A stretch of 23,271 bases of DNA from the IMG/VR virus record IMGVR_UViG_2563366867_000008; one strand, given 5' to 3'. Source of the stretch: a virus. Taxonomy: Duplodnaviria; Heunggongvirae; Uroviricota; Caudoviricetes. The notes below the pieces were generated by a model that saw only the letters and a list, made by a program, of their open reading frames with translations, was not told the DNA's origin and ran no database searches. This document shows, one piece after another, positions 8,600 to 20,686 of the stretch (position 1 is its first letter; every line of letters begins with the position of its first letter). The translations under genes and the position numbers were made by a program.

Positions 8600-8680
8600 A
8601 CACCAGATACTTTGTTATCCAACGATGTTAACCACAGGAACCCAAAGTATCAAGAAATTCTGTTACTTTAGTATCAACAG
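8600..8680. promoter_or_regulatory. Right operator/divergent promoter region (OR-like)
   Basis: AGTATCAA half-sites at 8646-8653 and 8668-8675, inverted GATACTTTG at 8606-8614; lies between the cI-like start and the minus-strand early operon. Confidence 0.6.
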
Positions 8681-8699
8681 CCATGAGAGGAGAAGAAAA

Positions 8700-9356
8700 A
8701 TGAAGTCTTTAGGTGAACGTCTCATCAACGCACGGCAAAAAGCTGGGTTAACACAAGATGCGTTGGCTAAAAAAGCTGGGGTCACCAGAGTTGCAATCAG
8801 TAAAGCCGAGCAAGGCCTTACAAAAAGTTTCAACGGTGACACCCTTTTTAAAGTTGCAGCTGCACTGCAGTGTTCACCGCAGTGGCTTCAGAACGGAGAT
8901 GAAAAAGATAAGCATTGGGAAAATAATGTTAAGAGCTGCCCACAGAGAGACACAGCATACTCTTACCCTGTAATTAACTGGGTTCAGGCAGGATTATTCG
9001 CAACTTCTGGTGATGACTACAACATGTATGATCAGGATAATTGGAGGCATTCTGTAAAATACGCTGGTGAGAGGGGGTTCTGGCTGGAAGTGCACGGAGA
9101 CTCAATGACTTCGCCCGTAGGAATAACATTTCCTGAAGGAATGTCGATCCTTGTCAACCCAGATAAAGAAGTTTTTTCAGGGTGTTACGTCATCGCCAGA
9201 AAAAAATCTACCAATGAAGCAACATTCAAAAAATATATTTCTGAAATGGGAAAGGCGTTTCTAAAGCCCCTTAATCCACAATATCCAATCATAGAAATGG
9301 ACAATGATTGCGAAATAGTAGGTGTTGTGGTTGATGCCAGGTGGGATATTTTCTAA
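8700..9356 (+). CDS. cI-type repressor (N-terminal HTH-XRE, C-terminal S24 LexA-like autopeptidase)
   Basis: Start at internal ATG with RBS GAGAGGAGAAG; HTH LTQDALAKKAGVTRVAISKAE; GDSM serine and downstream Lys typical of S24. Confidence 0.85.
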   Translation: MKSLGERLINARQKAGLTQDALAKKAGVTRVAISKAEQGLTKSFNGDTLFKVAAALQCSPQWLQNGDEKDKHWENNVKSCPQRDTAYSYPVINWVQAGLFATSGDDYNMYDQDNWRHSVKYAGERGFWLEVHGDSMTSPVGITFPEGMSILVNPDKEVFSGCYVIARKKSTNEATFKKYISEMGKAFLKPLNPQYPIIEMDNDCEIVGVVVDARWDIF

Positions 9357-10451: not shown

Positions 10452-10817
10452 ATGAAAAAGTTCGAAAACATAACTGTTCTCCATGTTGATGACTTTGATT
10501 ATACAAACCCGGAACTTCTCCCGGAGGTTGTAAAGGCAATAGATGTTGCCGATATAGTGATTAGAGGAAAGAGAATTGTCAAAAACAGGCTCGCATGCAC
10601 TTCAGAAGCAATGACAGAAACAACCTCACAGCAAGATAATTACGAAGGCATTTGTCTGGAGCCTGATTCATTTGCGGTAAATGTTTATCATTTATTGCAT
10701 GCAACACAGGTATTACATATGTCCAGTAATCACGAAACGAAAACACTCGGCAGCGAAATTCTGAATTTTGCATGTGAGTATGCAAAAACTGCTGCCGAAA
10801 AAGAATTAGCGCAATAA
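10452..10817 (+). CDS. Hypothetical protein
   Basis: 121 aa; RBS GAGGAAG; divergent from the 10045-10272 gene across a palindrome-rich 180-bp spacer. Confidence 0.55.
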   Translation: MKKFENITVLHVDDFDYTNPELLPEVVKAIDVADIVIRGKRIVKNRLACTSEAMTETTSQQDNYEGICLEPDSFAVNVYHLLHATQVLHMSSNHETKTLGSEILNFACEYAKTAAEKELAQ

Positions 10818-11372: not shown

Positions 11373-11587
11373 TGGCTAATTTATCCCCTGTATCTGTTGT
11401 GCACGAAAAAGTGCAGATCGTTATGACAATTGAAAATGGCCAGGTAACAGATGTCTGCAAAGTCCGCGATGGAGAGCTGATTGCCAGCATGGATACATTC
11501 ATATGGCTGGCAGAAAGAGCGGGGTATCAGATAACAGCACCTGCTCAGGAGGAAACCAGTGACATTAACAGCAACGCGAATTCCTGA
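11372..11587 (+). CDS. Hypothetical protein
   Basis: 71 aa; RBS GGAGG; start overlaps upstream stop. Confidence 0.5.
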   Translation: MANLSPVSVVHEKVQIVMTIENGQVTDVCKVRDGELIASMDTFIWLAERAGYQITAPAQEETSDINSNANS

Positions 11588-11777
11588 GTGGGTCCACCAG
11601 CAGGCGTTGCTGGTCCTGCGGCGGTACAGATGCCGACGTATATTCCCGCATCGGATACAGCGCAACGGATATCTCAGTCTGAAGGTTAACCGTCGCTGGC
11701 GGCTGTTATCGAAAGACGACGGCCGGAACTGGGAAATAATGAGTCATGAACGTTATTCGGGAGAAATAAAGAAATGA
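11559..11777 (+). CDS. Hypothetical basic protein (GTG start)
   Basis: 72 aa; AGGAGG 6 nt upstream of GTG. Confidence 0.45.
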   Translation: MTLTATRIPEWVHQQALLVLRRYRCRRIFPHRIQRNGYLSLKVNRRWRLLSKDDGRNWEIMSHERYSGEIKK

Positions 11778-12166
11778 TCGACAACCGCACCGCCAGCGCC
11801 ATTGACCAGGCATTACAGAAACATGATACACCCGTCGGCCCGTTATTTTTTGTAACACATCACGGAAGAACAAAAAAATGCCTCACTCGAAAAACGGCAA
11901 TTCGTTACCTGGCATTCTTTATGACCACCCGCGCTTTTGAACGTTCAGGATTCCGACAACGCCATCCTGACAAGCGTTTTATCTTCAACGGGAATGAAAT
12001 ATGGAAACGTGGAGAATCAACCACAGAGTACACCCGCGCACACCAGCGAACAATCAGACGACTGCGCAGACTCATCGCCAGGAAACAGTATACAGAAAAA
12101 TGGTTCAGAAAATATGACACATGGAGCGCCGGATATTACGAACTGATGGCAACAAAACCATTCTGA
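11774..12166 (+). CDS. Hypothetical basic protein
   Basis: 130 aa; ATGA overlap with upstream gene. Confidence 0.5.
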   Translation: MIDNRTASAIDQALQKHDTPVGPLFFVTHHGRTKKCLTRKTAIRYLAFFMTTRAFERSGFRQRHPDKRFIFNGNEIWKRGESTTEYTRAHQRTIRRLRRLIARKQYTEKWFRKYDTWSAGYYELMATKPF

Positions 12167-12226
12167 CGTAAACGAAATTAACCATGACGCAATTAAATAA
12201 GGCAAGCTGAATACAGCAGGAGGACC

Positions 12227-12415
12227 ATGAACATTTATTTCAGAATAGTTATATCACTGGCAATTATCGCATGTATTTACGGATTGCTCGTCCCGTTTCT
12301 GATATCAATGAAGGATACGGTAGCGGTGATTTCTGGCTTTGCACTGACGTTTCTAACCCCGCCATGTATTTATACCATTTATAAGGGGCTTTCTTTCACT
12401 AAGGATAAAAGATGA
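12227..12415 (+). CDS. Small membrane protein (two predicted TM helices)
   Basis: 62 aa, hydrophobic; RBS AGGAGG; stop overlaps start of SPFH gene (ATGA). Confidence 0.6.
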   Translation: MNIYFRIVISLAIIACIYGLLVPFLISMKDTVAVISGFALTFLTPPCIYTIYKGLSFTKDKR

Positions 12416-13239
12416 AAAAAATTATTTTTTCTTTAGCCATTGTTCTGCCTGCCATTGGCCTTGTCGGTTGTGATCGTGTTGAGCCTGGTAATGTGGGCAT
12501 CAAAGTCAACAAACTTGGCGACGACAAAGGCGTCGGTGAAGTGGTCGGTGTTGGTCGCTACTGGACAGGCTGGAACACTGAAGTTTATATCTTCCCGACC
12601 TTTAAGCAGATGAAGACCTACGATGATCCATTCAGTTTCCAGATGAGCGATGGAACAACCATTGGTTACCACATCGGAGTAGCCTACAAGGTTGATCCAT
12701 CCAAAGTTACCACAGTCTTTCAGACCTACCGCAAAGGCGTGGACGACATTACCGACACCGACCTGCGCCAGAAGATAGCCGACGCACTCAACCGACTGGC
12801 CAGCAAAATGACCACCGACAAATTTATCGACGGCGGCAAGTCTGAGCTGCTGGATGCAGCTCTTAAAGACATTCAGGAAGAAATGACGCCCATCGGTATT
12901 CAGGTAATAAGCCTCTCATATGTGGGTAAGCCGGAGTACCCGCCTACTGTTATCGACAGCATTAATGCCAAAGTCACGGCGAACCAGAAAACTCTGCAAC
13001 GCGAGCAGGAAGTAAAACAGCGCGAAGCGGAAGCCAACATGTTGCGCGCGGAAGCTGCCGGACAGGCTGATGCGATTCGCACAAAAGCCCAGGCTGAAGC
13101 CGATGCTATTCGTTTACGCGGTGAAGCTCTGCGTCAGAACCCCGGTGTTATGGAGCTGGAAGCCATCAATAAATGGAACGGCACGCTGCCGCAATACATG
13201 ACCAGCGGTGCCAATACACCATTTATCCAGGTTAAATAA
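12412..13239 (+). CDS. SPFH/band-7 (prohibitin/stomatin-like) lipoprotein with C-terminal Ala/Glu-rich coiled coil
   Basis: 275 aa; signal peptide with lipobox LVGC; SPFH-like core; RBS AAGGA. Confidence 0.7.
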   Translation: MKKIIFSLAIVLPAIGLVGCDRVEPGNVGIKVNKLGDDKGVGEVVGVGRYWTGWNTEVYIFPTFKQMKTYDDPFSFQMSDGTTIGYHIGVAYKVDPSKVTTVFQTYRKGVDDITDTDLRQKIADALNRLASKMTTDKFIDGGKSELLDAALKDIQEEMTPIGIQVISLSYVGKPEYPPTVIDSINAKVTANQKTLQREQEVKQREAEANMLRAEAAGQADAIRTKAQAEADAIRLRGEALRQNPGVMELEAINKWNGTLPQYMTSGANTPFIQVK

Positions 13240-13310
13240 CTTAATATGCCCGGCAGGCCGTCGGGCTAAGGGAAAAGCAGATAAACACTCATAATACTCA
13301 ACCGCAAATA

Positions 13311-14084: not shown

Positions 14085-14321
14085 ATGGGCAATGTGATTC
14101 AACTGGCTCCCAATGAATGGGTTTGTGAAAGCGTTCTTATCGCAATTACCGGGCTCAAACCAGGCACAATTCTTCGGGCCCGGAAAGAATGCTGGATGGT
14201 TGGAAGAGAGTATATTCACGTATCACCAGACGGTAATCCAAAGCCTTCCAGTGAATGTATGTATAACAGAAAAGCAATAGATGCCTGGGTCGCCTCAATG
14301 AAAAACAAACAACCCAGGTGA
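14085..14321 (+). CDS. Putative excisionase
   Basis: 78 aa directly upstream of integrase in the same orientation; assignment is positional, sequence not confidently matched to a family. Confidence 0.45.
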   Translation: MGNVIQLAPNEWVCESVLIAITGLKPGTILRARKECWMVGREYIHVSPDGNPKPSSECMYNRKAIDAWVASMKNKQPR

Positions 14322-14376: not shown

Positions 14377-15690
14377 ATGGATAAAGTCAAATATCCAACA
14401 GGCGTCGAAAACCACGGCGGCACATTACGCATCTGGTTTAATTTTAAAGGTAAACGTGTCAGGGAAAATCTTGGTGTCCCTGACACTGCCAAGAACAGGA
14501 AGATCGCCGGGGAACTGCGGACATCAGTATGTTTTGCCATCCGCACAGGAAGCTTTGATTATGCTGCACAGTTCCCTGACTCCCCCAACCTTCAGGCTTT
14601 TGGGGTAAGTAAAAAAGAAATTACGGTGAAGGAACTTGAAGAAAAGTGGCTGGATCTGAAACGAATGGAAATCTCTGCAAATGCATTCAATCGCTATGAA
14701 TCCGTTGCAAGAACGATGGTTCCGAAAATTGGAGGCAGTAAACTGGTGTCATCGGTAACCAAAGAGGAATTGCTGTATATCAGGAAAGATTTGCTGACCG
14801 GGTATCAGAATTCAACGAAAAACAAAGCAGCAGCAAAAGGACGGAGCGTCGTTACTGTAAATTATTACATGACGACAATCGCTGGAATGTTTCAGTTTGC
14901 TGCAGATCACGGTTACTTAGAAGCAAATCCCTTCCAGGGAATTAAGCCTCTTAAAAGAGCCAGGGCAGAGCCAGATCCGCTAACTCGTGACGAATTTATT
15001 CGCCTGATAGATGCTTGCCGACATCAGCAGACGAAAAACCTGTGGTCATTGGCTGTGTACACAGGAATGCGTCACGGTGAACTGGTCTCCCTGGCCTGGG
15101 AAGATATCGATCTGAAGGCAGGAACAATTACCATCAGGCGCAATTATACGAAACTTGGTGAGTTCACTCTACCGAAAACTGAAGCAAGCACAAACAGGGT
15201 TGTGCACCTTATCCAGCCCGCTATCAGTGTCCTGAAAAATCAGGCTGAAATGACAAGACTGGGTAAGCAGTACAACATCAAGGTGCAACTACGTGAATAT
15301 GGACGTTCAGTGAACCATGAATGTACTTTCGTGTTTAACCCTCAAGTGGTTAGAAAAAGCGAACAGGTAGGTTTTGTCTACAAAGTCGATTCTGTAGGTG
15401 ACTCATGGGAAACAGCCATTAAGCGTGCAGGGATCAGGCATCGAAAGGCATACCAGTCACGACACACTTATGCGTGCTGGTCATTATCTGCCGGAGCAAA
15501 CCCAAGCTTCATTGCCAGCCAGATGGGCCATGCAAGTGCCCAGATGGTATTCAATGTATACGGAGCATGGATGACTGACAGCAATGCAGAACAGATCGCA
15601 ATGCTGAATCAGAAGCTGACAGATTATGTCCCAATGATGCCCCATAGTCACCAAAGTGACACCAGAGGCTTATTAAAATCAGTAAGTTAA
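14377..15690 (+). CDS. Tyrosine integrase (lambda Int family)
   Basis: 437 aa; RBS GGAGG; C-terminal catalytic region with R...HxxR...Y-type residues (RHTYACWSLSAGANPSFIASQMGHASAQMVFNVY); abuts disrupted host gene. Confidence 0.85.
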   Translation: MDKVKYPTGVENHGGTLRIWFNFKGKRVRENLGVPDTAKNRKIAGELRTSVCFAIRTGSFDYAAQFPDSPNLQAFGVSKKEITVKELEEKWLDLKRMEISANAFNRYESVARTMVPKIGGSKLVSSVTKEELLYIRKDLLTGYQNSTKNKAAAKGRSVVTVNYYMTTIAGMFQFAADHGYLEANPFQGIKPLKRARAEPDPLTRDEFIRLIDACRHQQTKNLWSLAVYTGMRHGELVSLAWEDIDLKAGTITIRRNYTKLGEFTLPKTEASTNRVVHLIQPAISVLKNQAEMTRLGKQYNIKVQLREYGRSVNHECTFVFNPQVVRKSEQVGFVYKVDSVGDSWETAIKRAGIRHRKAYQSRHTYACWSLSAGANPSFIASQMGHASAQMVFNVYGAWMTDSNAEQIAMLNQKLTDYVPMMPHSHQSDTRGLLKSVS

Positions 15691-15716: not shown

Positions 15717-16118
15717 GTGGAGGGTAACACCACGCTTTATGCCCTGCCGAAACCCGAGGTTGTCCTGCGCTGGCGTGAGCAGACCACAGATGACTTCCGC
15801 TTCTGTTTTAAGTTTCCGGCGACCATTTCGCATCAGGCAGCATTACGGCATTGCGATGATTTAGTGACTGAATTTTTGACCCGCATGTCACCGTTGGCTC
15901 CGCGCATTGGACAATACTGGCTGCAACTGCCTGCCACATTCGGCCCACGGGAGCTGCCTGCGCTTTGGCATTTTCTCGATTCTCTTCCCGGTGAATTTAA
16001 TTATGGGGTGGAAGTCCGCCATCCACAGTTTTTCGCCAAAGGGGAAGAGGAACAAACGCTTAATCGCGGTTTACATCAGCGCGGCGTTAATCGGGTGATT
16101 TTTATTAGACACGTTTAA
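15717..16118 (+). pseudogene. Internal fragment of a DUF72-family (yecE-like) host gene, cut on both sides
   Basis: 133-aa frame with no proper start; EVRH-containing DUF72-like motifs; frame ends 5 codons after a sharp GC drop at ~16100; recognition of yecE is from memory. Confidence 0.45.
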
Positions 16119-16168
16119 ATACACCATCTAAAACGATACAATCTAGGGCATCAGTTTTGAGGTGAACA

Positions 16169-17692
16169 ATGAAACGTGCCATTTCTTACATCAGGTTTTC
16201 ATCTGAGAAGCAATCCCGAGGTGATTCATTACGCCGACAGTCTAAGATGGTTAATGACTGGCTTAAGGCTCATCCTGAGTACTACCTTGACCAAGATTTA
16301 TCTTTTCGTGATTTGGGGGTGAGTGGGTTCACTGGTAAGCACTTGAAAGGTGGCTTAGGTGACTTTTTAACCGCTATCGAGAAAGGGCTTGTTAAAGCTG
16401 GTGATACGCTCTTGATAGAATCTCTTGACCGTCTGTCACGTCAAGATGTAGACCAAGCAAGTGAGCTACTCAGAAACATTCTTCGCTCTGGTGTAGATGT
16501 GGTCACCTTGTCCGATGGTGAACATTACACAAAGGAAAGCTTAAAAGACCCGTTAGCTCTGATTAAAAGCATTTTGATAATGCAGCGGTCGCATGAGGAG
16601 AGTTTGCGTAAATCTGAACGTATCCAAGCTGCATGGGATGCAAAGAAAGAAGCTGCTAAAGCCGGTATCAAGATTTATAAGCGTTGTCCTGCATGGCTTA
16701 AGCTTAATGATGACCGTAAGACCTTCTCTGTGATACCTGAGAAGGTAGAAACTGTGAAGAGGTGCTTTCAATTACGGTTAGAGGGTAAGTCTATTTGGGA
16801 GATTGTCAGGACTCTTAATGATGAAGGTCACCAGACACTTAACCAGTACAAAGCAGGTAAGTTTGGTCAAACCTCAGTGCAAGACCTTCTGAAAAATCGC
16901 TCTGTAATTGGTTACTTCACACCTAAAGGCTGTGAGGAGATAGCTGGTTATTTCCCCCCTATCATCCCTGAGACTGATTTCTACAAAGTCCAGCAACTAT
17001 CATATTCTCGTTATGGAAGAAAGCCTGCTTCAGATAAACCATTGAGTGTGAATCTTTTCAAAGGTGTTATCCGTTGTTCTGAATGTGGTCATGCTTTGAT
17101 TATCACAGGCTTTAGCGATACAAGAAACGGGATTTATCGTTGTCCTCTTCGTAATGAAAACCGTTGTAGTGCTAAAGGACTTTCACGTAAGCAAACCGAT
17201 GGTACATTGCTTGCCCTGCTATCCCGTATAGACCGATTTGATAGCGATATGACGAATACCATAGACACACTGAAGCTACACCGTGAACACATCTCAAGCA
17301 ATATTGAAAAGCTGGTACAGCTATCACTTGAAATTGAAGACTTGTCCGCTATTACCAGCAAACTAAAACAGTTAAAAGGTGAGCTATCACAGGTTGATGC
17401 GGATATCGAGAAGGAGACACAACGCCTTAAATCTATTGATGTTGGTTGTTTGTCTGATTGTGACTTGACTACAAAGGCGGGAAGGATTGAAGCACAACTG
17501 ATAATCAAAAGTGCTGTTAAAGAGGTCATTTTAAATACTGCTAAACGTCGCTGTAAAGTAACTTTTCACAATAGTAAGTCAATCACCCTACCAATAACAG
17601 AAACCCCCTCAGAGGACGTTACAGAGGCTATACAGTCGCTTTCTGAAGTCACTGAGAGGGGGTTGATAGATGTTGATGAGGTTATCATATAG
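16169..17692 (+). CDS. Large serine recombinase (serine integrase)
   Basis: 507 aa; N-terminal resolvase catalytic motif AISYIRFSSEKQ...RQ, recombinase domain, Cys-rich zinc ribbon (CSECGH...YRCP...RC), C-terminal coiled coil; RBS GAGGTGA; candidate -10 TACAAT upstream. Confidence 0.85.
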   Translation: MKRAISYIRFSSEKQSRGDSLRRQSKMVNDWLKAHPEYYLDQDLSFRDLGVSGFTGKHLKGGLGDFLTAIEKGLVKAGDTLLIESLDRLSRQDVDQASELLRNILRSGVDVVTLSDGEHYTKESLKDPLALIKSILIMQRSHEESLRKSERIQAAWDAKKEAAKAGIKIYKRCPAWLKLNDDRKTFSVIPEKVETVKRCFQLRLEGKSIWEIVRTLNDEGHQTLNQYKAGKFGQTSVQDLLKNRSVIGYFTPKGCEEIAGYFPPIIPETDFYKVQQLSYSRYGRKPASDKPLSVNLFKGVIRCSECGHALIITGFSDTRNGIYRCPLRNENRCSAKGLSRKQTDGTLLALLSRIDRFDSDMTNTIDTLKLHREHISSNIEKLVQLSLEIEDLSAITSKLKQLKGELSQVDADIEKETQRLKSIDVGCLSDCDLTTKAGRIEAQLIIKSAVKEVILNTAKRRCKVTFHNSKSITLPITETPSEDVTEAIQSLSEVTERGLIDVDEVII

Positions 17693-17706
17693 TTGAGATT
17701 CTATCG

Positions 17707-18480
17707 TCAGAATCGCTTGTTAGGATTCACAGAAAATTTCTTCAAAGTACTACCTGTACCAGCATTATTAAGCACCTTTGAAGCTTGCGCATTAGCGGCA
17801 TCTGAGAAGGTGCTTTTTCCATTCTCAACTTTGACACTTTTACCACAATTGATACGGGCTTGAAGTTGCTCATTAGTGAGTTCACTCGTAGAGCGATTAT
17901 ATAGCTCCTGACACAGCAACATACCATTACCTAGACTTGTCGTAGTGTTACCAGTGTTCTTCTTAGAAGTTGCACCACCATCATTCGTGGTAGCAGTCTT
18001 TCCAGTTGCAGCAGAAATATCAGTCTGACCAACAATAGCTTTGAAGTTAATTTCCTGAAAAGTTAGCTGGATTCTTAGACCGTTTGAAATCCCCACATCT
18101 TTAGAGGCTTTAAAACTCGTAATAATGGAATCGTCAATTTTAATTCCGTCTTTACAGATGACCGAAATAATCTGTTTCTGGTCACGCCAGCTTTCAAGAG
18201 TGTCGATGAAGTTTTCTACTAATTGACCCTGACGAGTTAATAATAAGCTTCCTTCATAGCCAACTACAACGACACCACTAATAGTGATTGTTCTGGGTGC
18301 TCTTTGCACATTATCTGTAACGGTTTGTCCTGATTGCATGTTCTGTGTAGTCACCTGCATAGGACTATCAAATTCCATGTTTTCAGTTGCTGATAAGGTT
18401 AAGAAGGCATCTACATTATCTCTTAAGTGGAAATAGATGCCGTCTTTGCCACTATATTTGATTTGGTTAGAGTAAATCAT
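17707..18480 (-). CDS. Hypothetical protein with Thr/Gly-rich linker (possible tail-associated protein)
   Basis: 257 aa from internal ATG with RBS AAAGGGGA (ORF extends to 18501); follows the tape-measure-like gene; no domain recognised. Confidence 0.5.
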
Positions 18481-18555
18481 TAAATTCCCCTTTGATTTCA
18501 AAGGCTTAGTGTATTTTAATCATTTTTAACCAAGCCTTTGATATATAAGTGTTTT

Positions 18556-18626
18556 CTCTGTTAAGCGTGTTGTACGTAAATTCTATTTTTCAGTGTGGGT
18601 ATTAGCTTTACAGATTTCACGTAGCA
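18556..18626 (-). promoter_or_regulatory. Conserved cis-element, copy B (upstream of 264-aa gene)
   Basis: Blocks CTCTGTTAAGCGTG / TACGTAAA / GTGGGTAT / AGATTTCACGTAGCA shared with copy A at 20702-20772. Confidence 0.6.
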
Positions 18627-18637
18627 TTCGACTATTA

Positions 18638-20686
18638 TCAATCATCTTCTGGGAATGATGAACTTAATAGCGTAGCTTCTGCGTATTGGTCGTAGATATT
18701 ACTGCTAAAGGTCATAAAGCTGGTTTCATCTGGTTTAATGGCAACTTCACCACCAAGTGAAACTTTCACAGGCTCCTGAATACGTTTGCTCAAAGCACTA
18801 ATTTCATCTCTCAGGCTTTGGATATCCGTATTCGTTAATGCCGCATCTTGTCTCATGGTGATTAATTCTGGATGCTGGAAGTTAGCAAGATTCATAGCTG
18901 CACTATTAAACCAACCTTTCACATCGTCCATAGTAAATACTGGCTTAAGTCCAGATTCTTTAGCTAACTCTGGTAATTTAGCTTGTGCTTCCATTCGTTC
19001 AGGTGTAGAGGCTAGTCTTTCATAACCTGCATAGAGAGCGCTACCAGCTAATAGCATATTCCCAAGATTCAGTCTTGATGGTTTCCCATTCTTTCTATTC
19101 ACGTTATCCGCTGTAGTATCAGCAACCTGACCTAATCTTGTGATAGCAGTCATAAGCCCGTAAATACTTCTGGTTACACCAACAACTTTATTTACAGCAA
19201 TAACACCAGCCAAGACTTTTAAACTATTAATCAAGCCAGAACCTAAAGCATCAACAACTTTCTTTTGTTCATCGGTTAAACCACGATAAGCTAATGTCAC
19301 CTCATCAAAGAACGCTCGCACCTTGTAACTAATATCGGCCAGACTATCGACACCATGTGACATATCAGTCATCAAGCTACCAAGAGATTCACCAAGACTT
19401 TTACCACTTCCACCAAGAGCGTTTAAAAGCGTTGTTAAGCTTCTTGTAAAATCTTGCAGACCACTTTCAGAACCTCTGAAGATACTATCAAGCGTGGTAT
19501 TCCAAGAGTTTTTCAGGTTCCCTAATTGTGCCTGTGTACTTTCTGAAATAGCTTTCCAGCCACCTTTAGCGGTGATTTGTCTATTCAGTTCCTGAGTGAC
19601 CTTCTGAAGAGTATCGGCAGATTTTAAAGCCCCCTTCTTCATGGCATCAAATAATTCCTGTTCAGTCTTTCCGGTTGCTTTAGCGAATACCTGAACCATA
19701 CCAGGAACAGCTTCAGCTAGTTGCCCCTTAAGCTCTTCAGCCATAACCTGACCCTTACCAGCCATCTGTGATAATGCTGTCAGTGCTCGCTTAATCTCTT
19801 CTTCACTTCGACCCATCAGACGAGAATAGCCAATCATACTTCTAAAAAGTTCTTCAGAACCTTGAATACCCATAGACTCTTTAGCTGAAGCACCGAAACC
19901 AGCAAACTGTGATTGCAGTTCAGCGATATCTAAACCCGTTGTTTGAGCTAATGACTTTGTGAACTCTTTTACCTGACCTGCATCTTTATCAAATACGAAA
20001 TCAATTGAACGTTCAGCACTTGCACGCTGTAAACCAATTTCCATTACTCGCTGATAAGCTGCCAAAGCACTTTGAAAAGTGTAAATAGCCGTACCCGCTT
20101 TAATTGCACTTGAAGCTAGTACATCTAAACCATTTGAAGCATTTTCACTGTGATTATTTTTGCTGGTGGTCTTGTTAAACTTAGAAAGTGTTTCACGTAG
20201 ATTTTGATTTAACTTTGCTAACTCACGATTAAAAGCTTCGTTTCCAAGTGTCTTGGATTTACTACTTAATGCGTAAAACTGACTCTTAATGTATTTCTCG
20301 ACAATTGGGTTAAGACCTTTCAGCTTAGACATATTCGCTGAATAAGCCGCTGTGATTGCTCTGTTGCCGCTAATTCGTGGCTGTCTTGGCTGTCTAAGTG
20401 GCTTTAAAGTATCCTCAATTTCCGTTTTAATCTTAAACGCTCTAGTGTTTTTAAGACGCTGCTCAATCTTGTCAAAGGTCTTATTAAACTTCCTTTCAAG
20501 TTGCCCTAAAGAACTTGTCAGATTGCTGTCAAGTTGCTTGGTATCGACCTTAAACGCTCTATTCAAATTACGTTCAATTCTTTGTGCTGACTGCAAAGCT
20601 GCCTTTTCAACTCTTTGCAAGCCCTTAATAACGTTCTCGCTGAAGCCTAGCTCAACGATAAAACTATCAACTTTAAATTGTGCCAT
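18638..20686 (-). CDS. Phage tail tape-measure-like protein
   Basis: 682 aa, largely alpha-helical/coiled-coil; central LSQMAGKGQVMAEELKGQLAEAVPGMVQVFAKATGKTEQELFDAMKKGAL segment matches the tape-measure core motif as I remember it. Confidence 0.65.
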   Translation of the reverse strand: MAQFKVDSFIVELGFSENVIKGLQRVEKAALQSAQRIERNLNRAFKVDTKQLDSNLTSSLGQLERKFNKTFDKIEQRLKNTRAFKIKTEIEDTLKPLRQPRQPRISGNRAITAAYSANMSKLKGLNPIVEKYIKSQFYALSSKSKTLGNEAFNRELAKLNQNLRETLSKFNKTTSKNNHSENASNGLDVLASSAIKAGTAIYTFQSALAAYQRVMEIGLQRASAERSIDFVFDKDAGQVKEFTKSLAQTTGLDIAELQSQFAGFGASAKESMGIQGSEELFRSMIGYSRLMGRSEEEIKRALTALSQMAGKGQVMAEELKGQLAEAVPGMVQVFAKATGKTEQELFDAMKKGALKSADTLQKVTQELNRQITAKGGWKAISESTQAQLGNLKNSWNTTLDSIFRGSESGLQDFTRSLTTLLNALGGSGKSLGESLGSLMTDMSHGVDSLADISYKVRAFFDEVTLAYRGLTDEQKKVVDALGSGLINSLKVLAGVIAVNKVVGVTRSIYGLMTAITRLGQVADTTADNVNRKNGKPSRLNLGNMLLAGSALYAGYERLASTPERMEAQAKLPELAKESGLKPVFTMDDVKGWFNSAAMNLANFQHPELITMRQDAALTNTDIQSLRDEISALSKRIQEPVKVSLGGEVAIKPDETSFMTFSSNIYDQYAEATLLSSSFPEDD

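Follow-up and report, generated by a model that had tools for sequence, protein, structure and literature searches.

A small two-transmembrane hairpin protein and a predicted SPFH lipoprotein are encoded by a conserved gene pair shared by phages and bacterial chromosomes

The stretch of DNA analysed here (hereafter, the window; 23,271 nt, IMG/VR record IMGVR_UViG_2563366867_000008, Caudoviricetes) carries a prophage with a pair of overlapping genes at 12227–13239 on the plus strand, which encode a 62-aa membrane protein and a 275-aa SPFH (Band_7) protein with a lipoprotein signal peptide. Both genes are real and constitute a conserved unit that spans several phyla, and the best reading of their distribution is that the phage pair is a copy of an ancient cellular two-gene membrane-scaffold module. 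As for the function, we tentatively favor, with somewhat less than even confidence, a ring or cage of lipid-anchored SPFH proteins that would lie on the periplasmic side of the inner membrane, include the hairpin protein as a subunit and serve early in infection to fence off or stabilize membrane patches. A preliminary description of the window, made from the sequence, had presented the pair as an accessory membrane module of the early-left arm of the prophage, possibly acquired independently given its GC content, and had suggested a role in superinfection exclusion or abortive infection.

The paired genes and their products

The coordinates and the overlap of the two genes given in the preliminary description are borne out by the open reading frame (ORF) listing of the window and by the sequence itself. 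The small gene occupies 12227–12415 (+), with a Shine-Dalgarno-like AGGAGG (12218–12223) located 3 nt before its ATG. The SPFH gene occupies 12412–13239 (+); the stop codon of the small gene and the start codon of the SPFH gene share 4 nt in an ATGA at 12412–12415, implying translational coupling, and an AAGGA inside the 3′ end of the small gene (12401–12405) lies 6 nt before the SPFH ATG.

The 275-aa protein matches the Pfam family Band_7 (PF01145) with 109.3 bits (E 2.9e-31; the gathering cutoff is 23.6 bits) over residues 22–208 (12475–13035) and profile positions 2–176 of 176, in agreement with the domain assigned previously; it also matches PHROG 200 “lipoprotein” (E 9e-115). The N-terminus reads MKKIIFSLAIVLPAIGLVGC followed by DR, i.e., it is a lipoprotein signal peptide (MKKIIFSLAIVLPAIG, 12412–12471) with the lipobox L-V-G-C, the codon of Cys20 at 12469–12471 and Asp at position +2. 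The previously noticed lipobox is thus present, and its G19 and C20 are at least 90 % conserved in 27 homologs. The signal peptide and lipobox stand in place of the usual SPFH N-terminal transmembrane (TM) helix and are retained in homologs. On these grounds, the protein is predicted to be exported and lipid-modified at Cys20. Wherever a lipobox was detected in an enterobacterial locus, it is followed by D or E at +2 (no lipobox was found in one such locus, L101). Under the E. coli Lol-avoidance rule, Asp at +2 favors inner-membrane retention, and the acidic residue makes it probable that the lipoproteins of Enterobacterales are held in the inner membrane. In Gram-positive hosts, a lipoprotein can reside only on the outer face of the cytoplasmic membrane, which is a topologically equivalent place.

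The AlphaFold2 model of the 275-aa protein (predicted local distance difference test, pLDDT, 74.6) consists of a beta-sheet (residues 20–94), helices (96–161), a strand (163–175) and a single 65-residue helix (178–242; 12943–13137), which corresponds to the Ala/Glu-rich coiled-coil tail anticipated previously; residues 246–275 have pLDDT below 50. In Foldseek comparisons, the full-length model matches every solved cage-forming SPFH protein with probability 1.00, at 14–19 % identity over about 260–300 columns, including HflK/C, prohibitin, erlin, stomatin, flotillin, the shoulder of the major vault protein and QmcA-YbbJ. The top match is HflK (7vhq_E, E 2.5e-13), followed by prohibitin (8rrh), and the FtsH-cage structures 7wi3 and 9cz2 are among the PDB fold matches. 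The best PDB sequence match is HflK as well (E 2e-4).

Two further features are compatible with an assembled wall. The length of the coiled-coil helix varies only by exact 11-residue steps (alignment A3 columns about 246–257, window residues about 226–237), with 11 additional residues in the N4-like phage KpCHEMY26 and the Klebsiella phage Seu621 and 11 fewer in the Burkholderia phage phiE125, as expected of a register-preserving coiled-coil wall. The C-terminal motif I-N-K-W-N-G-T-L-P-Q-Y-M (residues 252–263; 13165–13200) contains five positions, I252, K254, W255, G257 and P260, that do not vary between phages of E. coli, Burkholderia and Pseudomonas; being disordered in the monomer model, this motif might be an inter-subunit cap.

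The 62-aa protein has two hydrophobic segments by hydropathy, TM1 at about residues 4–26 and TM2 at about 32–53, separated by a short polar turn, P23-x-L-I-S27-M-K-D-T31. Its C-terminal tail, KGLSFTKDKR, is basic, and an N-in/C-in topology is therefore predicted; the depositors of KpCHEMY26 annotated the homolog gp28 as “2 TMDs N in C in”. The protein matches PHROG 1130 “membrane protein” (E 3.6e-23), and hydropathy, this match and the ATGA overlap all uphold the view of a two-TM membrane protein coupled to the SPFH gene. An exhaustive HMMER search returned 30 relatives among 1.84 billion representatives, and a word-indexed homolog search returned 19 close relatives. Alignment of relatives (A2) yields the signature ...Y-G-x3-P-x-L-[IV]-S-x-x-D-[ST]-x-x-V-x-x-G..., with invariant P23 and G37 and with S27 and V34 conserved at 90 % or more. 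Given this signature, the PHROG match and a ratio of nonsynonymous to synonymous substitution rates (dN/dS) of 0.115 in comparison with phage phiP27, the small ORF is a real gene rather than a chance ORF. No Pfam family was detected in it at E<=0.01 and no profile match in the PDB; NfeD, the usual suspect next to an SPFH gene, is ruled out because it is absent among the E<=10 Pfam matches of four family members.

Both genes evolve under purifying selection, which is strong in the SPFH gene (dN/dS 0.03–0.055), and their rates are strikingly unequal. Between the window and the P2-like phage P88, the small gene has a dN of 0.76 and the SPFH gene one of 0.04; protein identity is about 26 % for the hairpins and about 93 % for the mature SPFH proteins. 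At the DNA level, P88 and P1 variants share with the window only the SPFH core, 87–90 % identical at roughly 12460–13206 (86.8 % for the core of the P1 variants). This core starts at the lipobox, and the small gene and signal-peptide region are too diverged for megablast; the small gene with the signal peptide thus appears as a separate, more variable 5′ unit. Because near-identical SPFH proteins coexist with hairpins of such low similarity, any contact between the two proteins must rest on a few invariant residues of the periplasmic turn.

Pairing, distribution and ancestry

The association of the two genes was assessed by scanning a single genome of each species with a varied SPFH alignment, which yielded 80 loci at 32–96 % identity from Enterobacterales, Sutterella, Dyella/Rhodanobacteraceae, Leptospira, Saprospirales, Flavobacterium, Dependentiae and others. 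A small-family hidden Markov model was run on the six-frame ORF segments of these loci, with significance set at E<=1e-3; 77 loci have upstream sequence. In 57 of the 77, a significant match ends between −16 and +34 nt relative to where the SPFH gene is projected to begin, and a weak match occupies the same position in 7 others, so that the partner of the SPFH gene is an adjacent small membrane gene in 57–64 of the 77 loci. Three loci contain a significant match on the SPFH strand but further off, and the 10 loci without a match are mostly from Bacteroidota and Kapaibacteria at 32–36 % identity. Altogether, the 7,623 six-frame segments contain 60 significant matches, all on the SPFH strand, 57 of which abut the SPFH gene whereas 3 are within about 1 kb; there is no match elsewhere among these segments. 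Given that the matches are confined to the SPFH strand and nearly all abut the SPFH gene, the pair is a conserved two-gene unit spanning phyla. Among viral contigs, an earlier scan returned only loci that are 97–100 % identical, and three single-protein scans with divergent small proteins gave no match.

In two of the three loci with a more distant match, an IS1 insertion with a 9-bp duplication separates the two genes, and in the third, the small gene is located downstream of the SPFH gene. The IS1 copies, in Shigella flexneri SFBU1023 (L092, 1700–2490) and E. coli ECMA0423 (L093), are inserted exactly at the junction of the small and SPFH genes, uncoupling the pair, and the duplicated target is GGATAAAAG.

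In phages, relatives of the SPFH protein were found by tblastn in 784 of the 50,697 records. Their identity to the window protein declines from 97.8 % in phiP27 and 92.8 % in P88 through 74 % and 65 % in the N4-like phages KpCHEMY26 and phiEaP8, 47–49 % in ~142–150-kb Klebsiella myoviruses and 37 % in phiE125 to 30 % in crAss-like phages, 26 % in Staphylococcus Kayvirus (MbpS) and 24 % in haloarchaeal viruses; relatives exist in giant viruses as well. A large protein database contains 749 matches to the SPFH family, mostly from Enterobacterales and including contigs of about 110 kb, and DNA matches to the pair are present in 570 of the 5,426 complete E. coli genomes, with 241 of the places on plasmids. 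The pair itself occurs in lambdoid (phiP27, Stx2 phages), P2-like, P1-like and SSU5-like elements and in virulent N4-like and rV5-like phages. The SSU5-like phage-plasmids, as we take them to be, are represented by Yersinia pestis YPMT1.49c and Salmonella HCM2.0006c, to which the phiE125 record notes a likeness, and by a 108-kb Y. pestis contig that carries the pair.

The 4-nt overlap recurs in five phage lineages, represented by the window, phiP27 (ATGA), P88, KpCHEMY26 (gp28/gp29) and phiE125 (gp44/gp43). A P1 variant has, overlapping the start of its SPFH gene, a 78-aa ORF that is not annotated. In Seu621, one 54-aa ORF lies between the two genes; in this phage (L008, 5201–5365) and related ~145-kb myoviruses, this intervening ORF encodes a soluble protein annotated as “putative transcriptional regulator”. 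Remoter SPFH lipoproteins, such as those of the Pseudomonas phage Arefeen1 and the FelixO1-like phi63_307, have other upstream ORFs. An equation of the pair with plp/upl of P1 was rejected: plp of the reference P1 encodes 125 aa on the opposite strand.

The relatives of the window pair reside in enterotoxigenic and Shiga-toxin-producing E. coli strains of human origin and in Stx2 phages, which is compatible with a lysogenic-conversion or virulence lipoprotein that would leave the cell in outer-membrane vesicles and be recognized by TLR1/2 of the host. The precedent is PM0222 of Pasteurella multocida, a prophage-encoded HflK/C-like SPFH protein reported to be secreted in such vesicles, to activate TLR1/2 and to contribute to mouse virulence (PMC9872710). 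However, the likeness of PM0222 to the phage family is one of description, and any triacylated lipoprotein is a TLR2 ligand. This explanation accounts neither for the SPFH cage and the hairpin partner nor for the carriage of the module by virulent, soil and plant-associated phages and by chromosomes of Dyella and Leptospira, and we consider it very improbable.

The chromosomal copies bear on the ancestry of the module. In Dyella, the flanking genes, which encode a BlaR1-type M56 peptidase and a hemerythrin, recur in 15–16 of the 22 loci; in Leptospira, the pair is flanked by genes for an ArsR regulator and for AHSA1-like and beta-lactamase-like proteins. Both neighborhoods are of an ordinary chromosomal kind, and the phage copies are therefore best regarded as captures of a cellular module. 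One genome, that of Dyella marensis UNC178MFTsu3.1, contains two separate copies of the pair (L128 and L138), and position +2, next to the lipobox Cys, is held by Ser in some and by Asp in other Dyella loci, suggestive of two paralogous lineages. The module is distinct from the familiar host systems. The HflC NCBIfam score of the SPFH protein is 26.2 bits vs. a cutoff of 134.4 and the HflK score 23.6 vs. 159.4 (overall, 20–26 bits vs. cutoffs of 134–660), and orthology to E. coli HflKC, QmcA and YqiK is rejected by the NCBIfam scores and the PDB sequence search. Together with the absence of NfeD at E<=10, these scores dispose of orthology to a host housekeeping SPFH/NfeD pair, which the preliminary description had named as one finding that would overturn it.

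Genomic position and expression

In the window, the pair belongs to the pL-side early arm. The arm is headed by a cI-like XRE repressor gene (8625–9356, +; ORF and RefSeq annotation of the prophage of E. coli ATCC 43886), which is followed by small plus-strand genes, the pair, DUF5406, DUF4222, an excisionase (14085–14321, +; Pfam DUF1233, E 9.5e-33) and a tyrosine integrase (14377–15690, +; Pfam Arm-DNA-bind_2 and Phage_integrase) that marks the prophage end. The proposed early-left location thus holds, with the repressor upstream and the recombination genes downstream on the same strand. The flanking DUF72 annotation places the prophage end at yecE, and ATCC 43886 carries a 99.9 % identical prophage at the yecE (DUF72)/yecN site. 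The claim of a GC content above that of the preceding genes fits the SPFH gene (0.502) but not the small gene (0.381), and the two genes just upstream are at 0.516 and 0.468, so there is no clean step; with neighbors spanning 0.39 to 0.52, the GC case for independent acquisition is weak.

Some other features of the window can be mentioned here. Past the integrase, 15717–19650 contains a yecE (DUF72) remnant followed by the remnant of a second mobile element, with a 507-aa recombinase-family gene (16169–17692) and pieces of genes that carry tape-measure and baseplate annotations in E. coli; this region is only about 93 % identical to E. coli. Upstream of the pair, a 72-aa ORF (11559–11777) that overlaps both neighbors is labeled “ParE family toxin-like protein” in RefSeq relatives, with no antitoxin partner identified, and a 121-aa ORF (10452–10817) strongly matches PHROG 5451 (unknown function) and weakly (E 3.7e-4) a CII-like regulator family.

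Comparable positions are found in other phages. The pair lies among early-region genes between cox and the replication endonuclease in P88, between the RNA polymerase II subunits and dUTPase/replication genes in KpCHEMY26, and among ligase and exonuclease genes in Seu621. In the P1 variant MH422554, the module (L004, 3698–4793) exactly replaces tciA-tciB-tciC (reference P1, L006, 1601–2324) within the C1-controlled ban operon, whose C1 operator, Oban, remains intact upstream of it. The tciABC genes encode TerB-like “tellurite/colicin resistance” proteins, and the flanks of the slot are 99 % identical between the variant and the reference. An exact swap between such flanks defines a variable accessory slot in P1-like phage-plasmids. 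The P1 and P2-like blocks that hold the module are, we assume, repressor-controlled. Simple consensus scans detected neither a sigma-70-like promoter upstream of the pair (12100–12226) nor a plus-strand terminator directly after 13239; a hairpin at 13248–13266 was rejected as a terminator, given that it is not followed by a U-tract and is not better than shuffled sequences (z-score −1.36). The placement of the module among early and DNA-metabolism genes, in combination with the lack of a promoter or terminator of its own, argues for its production early in the lytic cycle and not by the repressed prophage.

Presence of the module varies, as the P1 replacement and its occurrence in a fraction of E. 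coli genomes show, and decayed copies exist. In E. coli TD225-C4 (L172, 1960–2469), a matching slot contains a decayed module in which the start codon of the small ORF is lost and an internal deletion in the SPFH gene, annotated as a frameshifted pseudogene, joins ...GRYWTG to QADAIR.... The slot was also considered as a site for alternative cargo, which was rejected: the 23 E. coli genomes with a shorter spacer hold a decayed copy of the module.

This accessory behavior, namely a non-universal pair that decays in some prophages and is swapped for tciABC in P1, would fit superinfection exclusion or another anti-phage defense, in which incoming phages would be stopped at DNA injection or at a periplasmic step by the periplasm-facing cage, alone or together with the hairpin, or the cage would restrain a membrane-depolarizing hairpin effector. 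T4 Imm and Sp and T5 Llp are early envelope exclusion proteins, so an envelope protein made early would fit this pattern, the two-TM topology with a basic tail of the small protein resembles that of a holin or Imm, and carriage of the pair by virulent phages is compatible with such a role because these phages encode exclusion functions too. Nevertheless, no PADLOC-DB v2 family matches either protein or the three neighbors, and a known defense system is rejected on this ground and because the pair is not mentioned in a preprint on a defense screen of the E. coli pangenome; the searched literature reports no link between SPFH proteins and anti-phage activity. The presumed repressor control of the P1 and P2-like blocks and the failure to find an own promoter also speak against exclusion, as do the dN/dS of 0.03–0.05 across unrelated phages and the chromosomal unit of Dyella and Leptospira: with such deep conservation of the SPFH protein and a chromosomal counterpart, a generic membrane function fits better than an arms-race specificity factor. 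Exclusion is thus possible but rather unlikely.

For the same reasons, the original framing of the pair can be retained only in part. The accessory membrane module in the early-left arm stands, whereas its operon placement disagrees with a defense moron expressed in the lysogen. A moron for exclusion or abortive infection lacks support, given the absence of a PADLOC match and of an own promoter or terminator, the weak GC case and the presumed repressor control of the blocks that hold the pair in P1 and P88; nor is the pair private to prophages, being found also in virulent phages and on Dyella and Leptospira chromosomes.

The breadth of the family, from virulent phages of Gram-negative and Gram-positive bacteria and archaea to giant viruses, suggests a generic benefit during infection. 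One form of it would be a guard of membrane integrity or lysis timing, whereby the cage stabilizes the energized inner membrane or sequesters holins or other phage membrane proteins, averting premature lysis. In Kayvirus, the SPFH gene mbpS is located between lysK and tgl, beside a holin-like gene (PMC7150955), and in bacteria, proteins of the SPFH/flotillin kind have been connected with envelope-stress and Psp systems (PMC8581546). However, the pairs of the window and of the N4-like, rV5-like, P2-like and P1-like phages lie among early or DNA-metabolism genes, outside the lysis cassette, and we regard the lysis guard as decidedly unlikely.

Proposed function and comparison with known systems

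Under the explanation that we tentatively favor, a membrane-fencing cage used early in infection, the SPFH protein would be exported and lipidated at Cys20 and would, in Enterobacterales, stay in the inner membrane, where the long helix and the conserved C-terminus would build a ring or cage on the periplasmic face. The 62-aa hairpin, made in coupled amounts, would be a dedicated integral-membrane subunit of this cage, contacting it via the conserved periplasmic turn P-x-L-I-S-x-x-D-T. Expressed early in the lytic cycle, the assembly would fence off or stabilize patches of the host inner membrane, most likely by caging a host inner-membrane machine; the module would not be a stand-alone defense toxin expressed from the lysogen. 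Because HflK/C and prohibitins are structurally closest to the phage protein and cage FtsH proteases from the same side of the membrane, FtsH-type proteases, the only well-documented clients of SPFH cages that face the periplasm or the intermembrane space, would be the best precedent. HflK/C cages FtsH from the periplasmic side (PMC12048511), and prohibitins cage an FtsH-type protease in mitochondria (PMC2636767). In addition, the lambda pL operon already holds an FtsH inhibitor, cIII.

Several considerations weigh against this explanation. The oligomeric cage, the inner-membrane location and the contact between the two proteins are what we infer, as are the timing of expression and the identity of the client; in particular, assembly into a ring or cage would follow from analogy with solved SPFH proteins. 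The monomer model is of moderate quality, with the C-terminus below pLDDT 50, and the sequence similarity to HflK is marginal (E 2e-4), with no specific tie to FtsH. Asp at +2 combined with Arg at +3, or Glu at +2 as in some relatives, are not proven Lol-avoidance signals, and in non-enterobacterial homologs the +2 residue is Ser, Asp or others. The small protein diverges very fast (to ~26 % identity with that of P88), leaving very few residues for the contact. In the window, neither a promoter equivalent to pL nor a plus-strand terminator between cI and the module was found, and the early-operon placement leaves room for low-level expression in lysogens. Finally, the searched literature contains no functional study of any phage SPFH homolog, and the reason for the presence of SPFH proteins in phages has been called unclear (PMC13239085).

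A more specific version of the proposal is that the module belongs to a new class of extracytoplasmic SPFH cages used early by many phage families to cap a particular host machine, either FtsH, by analogy with a lambda CIII protein in the form of a cage, or DNA-entry or energy-transducing complexes. This version seems quite unlikely. If such capping takes place, control of protein turnover, lysis-lysogeny decisions or entry of competing phages might be at stake. A cage that targets FtsH or an entry machine would represent a new viral takeover of membrane compartmentalization and provide a tractable bacterial model for client choice by SPFH cages, relevant to prohibitins, stomatins and flotillins.

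Among the known systems, HflK/HflC-FtsH of E. coli (SPFH3) shares with the phage SPFH protein the SPFH1/2 domains, the long coiled-coil helix, the C-terminal cap segment and, by prediction, the location of the SPFH domains on the periplasmic side of the inner membrane; it is the top match in both sequence and fold and has a historical tie to lambdoid phage biology via FtsH and CII. However, HflK and HflC are a paralogous pair with N-terminal TM helices, whereas the phage module has one SPFH gene with a lipid anchor and a dedicated two-TM partner gene and scores far below the NCBIfam cutoffs, and its contact with FtsH is hypothetical. Prohibitins and prokaryotic SPFH4 proteins are similar in that prohibitin is the second-best fold match and several phage homologs are annotated as “prohibitin family protein”; an extracytoplasmic orientation has been proposed for SPFH4 (PMC2636767).

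Operons that join an SPFH scaffold gene to one for a small membrane partner are a recurrent arrangement (PMC2636767), typified by the SPFH-NfeD operons QmcA-YbbJ and YqiK-YqiJ (PDB 8z5g). The phage partner differs in being only about 60 aa long and devoid of an NfeD/OB-fold domain; furthermore, QmcA and YqiK face the cytoplasm, whereas the phage SPFH protein is predicted to be exported and lipidated. The Bacillus subtilis SPFH protein YdjI/SamI likewise depends on small co-operonic membrane proteins, YdjG/YdjH (SamG/SamH), for recruitment to the membrane, as described in two reports (PMC8581546; 10.64898/2026.02.06.704340), but it is cytosolic and PspA-linked, and no sequence relationship was found between its partners and the phage hairpin.

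T4 Imm/Sp, T5 Llp (an envelope exclusion protein; PMC9586334) and TP-J34 Ltp are early phage membrane proteins or lipoproteins that act at the envelope. They are not homologous to the module and are small, lineage-specific blockers of receptors or injection, whereas the phage SPFH protein is a large, deeply conserved, predicted oligomeric scaffold that is encoded on non-phage chromosomes too.

Previous suggestions on phage SPFH proteins include a role in lysogeny by analogy with HflKC (PMC8540360), in adsorption or entry (PMC13239085) and in assisting secretion (PMC7150955), and mass spectrometry of a Vi01-like phage identified its SPFH protein by 3 peptides (PMC10892097). A classification of prokaryotic SPFH proteins published in 2009 lists no partner gene for SPFH3, 4 and 6–12 and mentions neither lipoproteins nor phages (PMC2636767). 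The SPFH lipoprotein family is already annotated in databases. It appears, however, that the two-TM partner, the phylum-wide pair, the predicted extracytoplasmic lipid-anchored design and the early-operon placement in five phage lineages have not been described. From coliphages to Kayvirus and haloarchaeal viruses, SPFH proteins are among the more widespread accessory membrane proteins of phages, and the hairpin partner, the predicted anchoring outside the cytoplasm and the early-operon placement turn a vague annotation into a defined unit that can be set beside the HflK/C, prohibitin and SPFH-NfeD systems.

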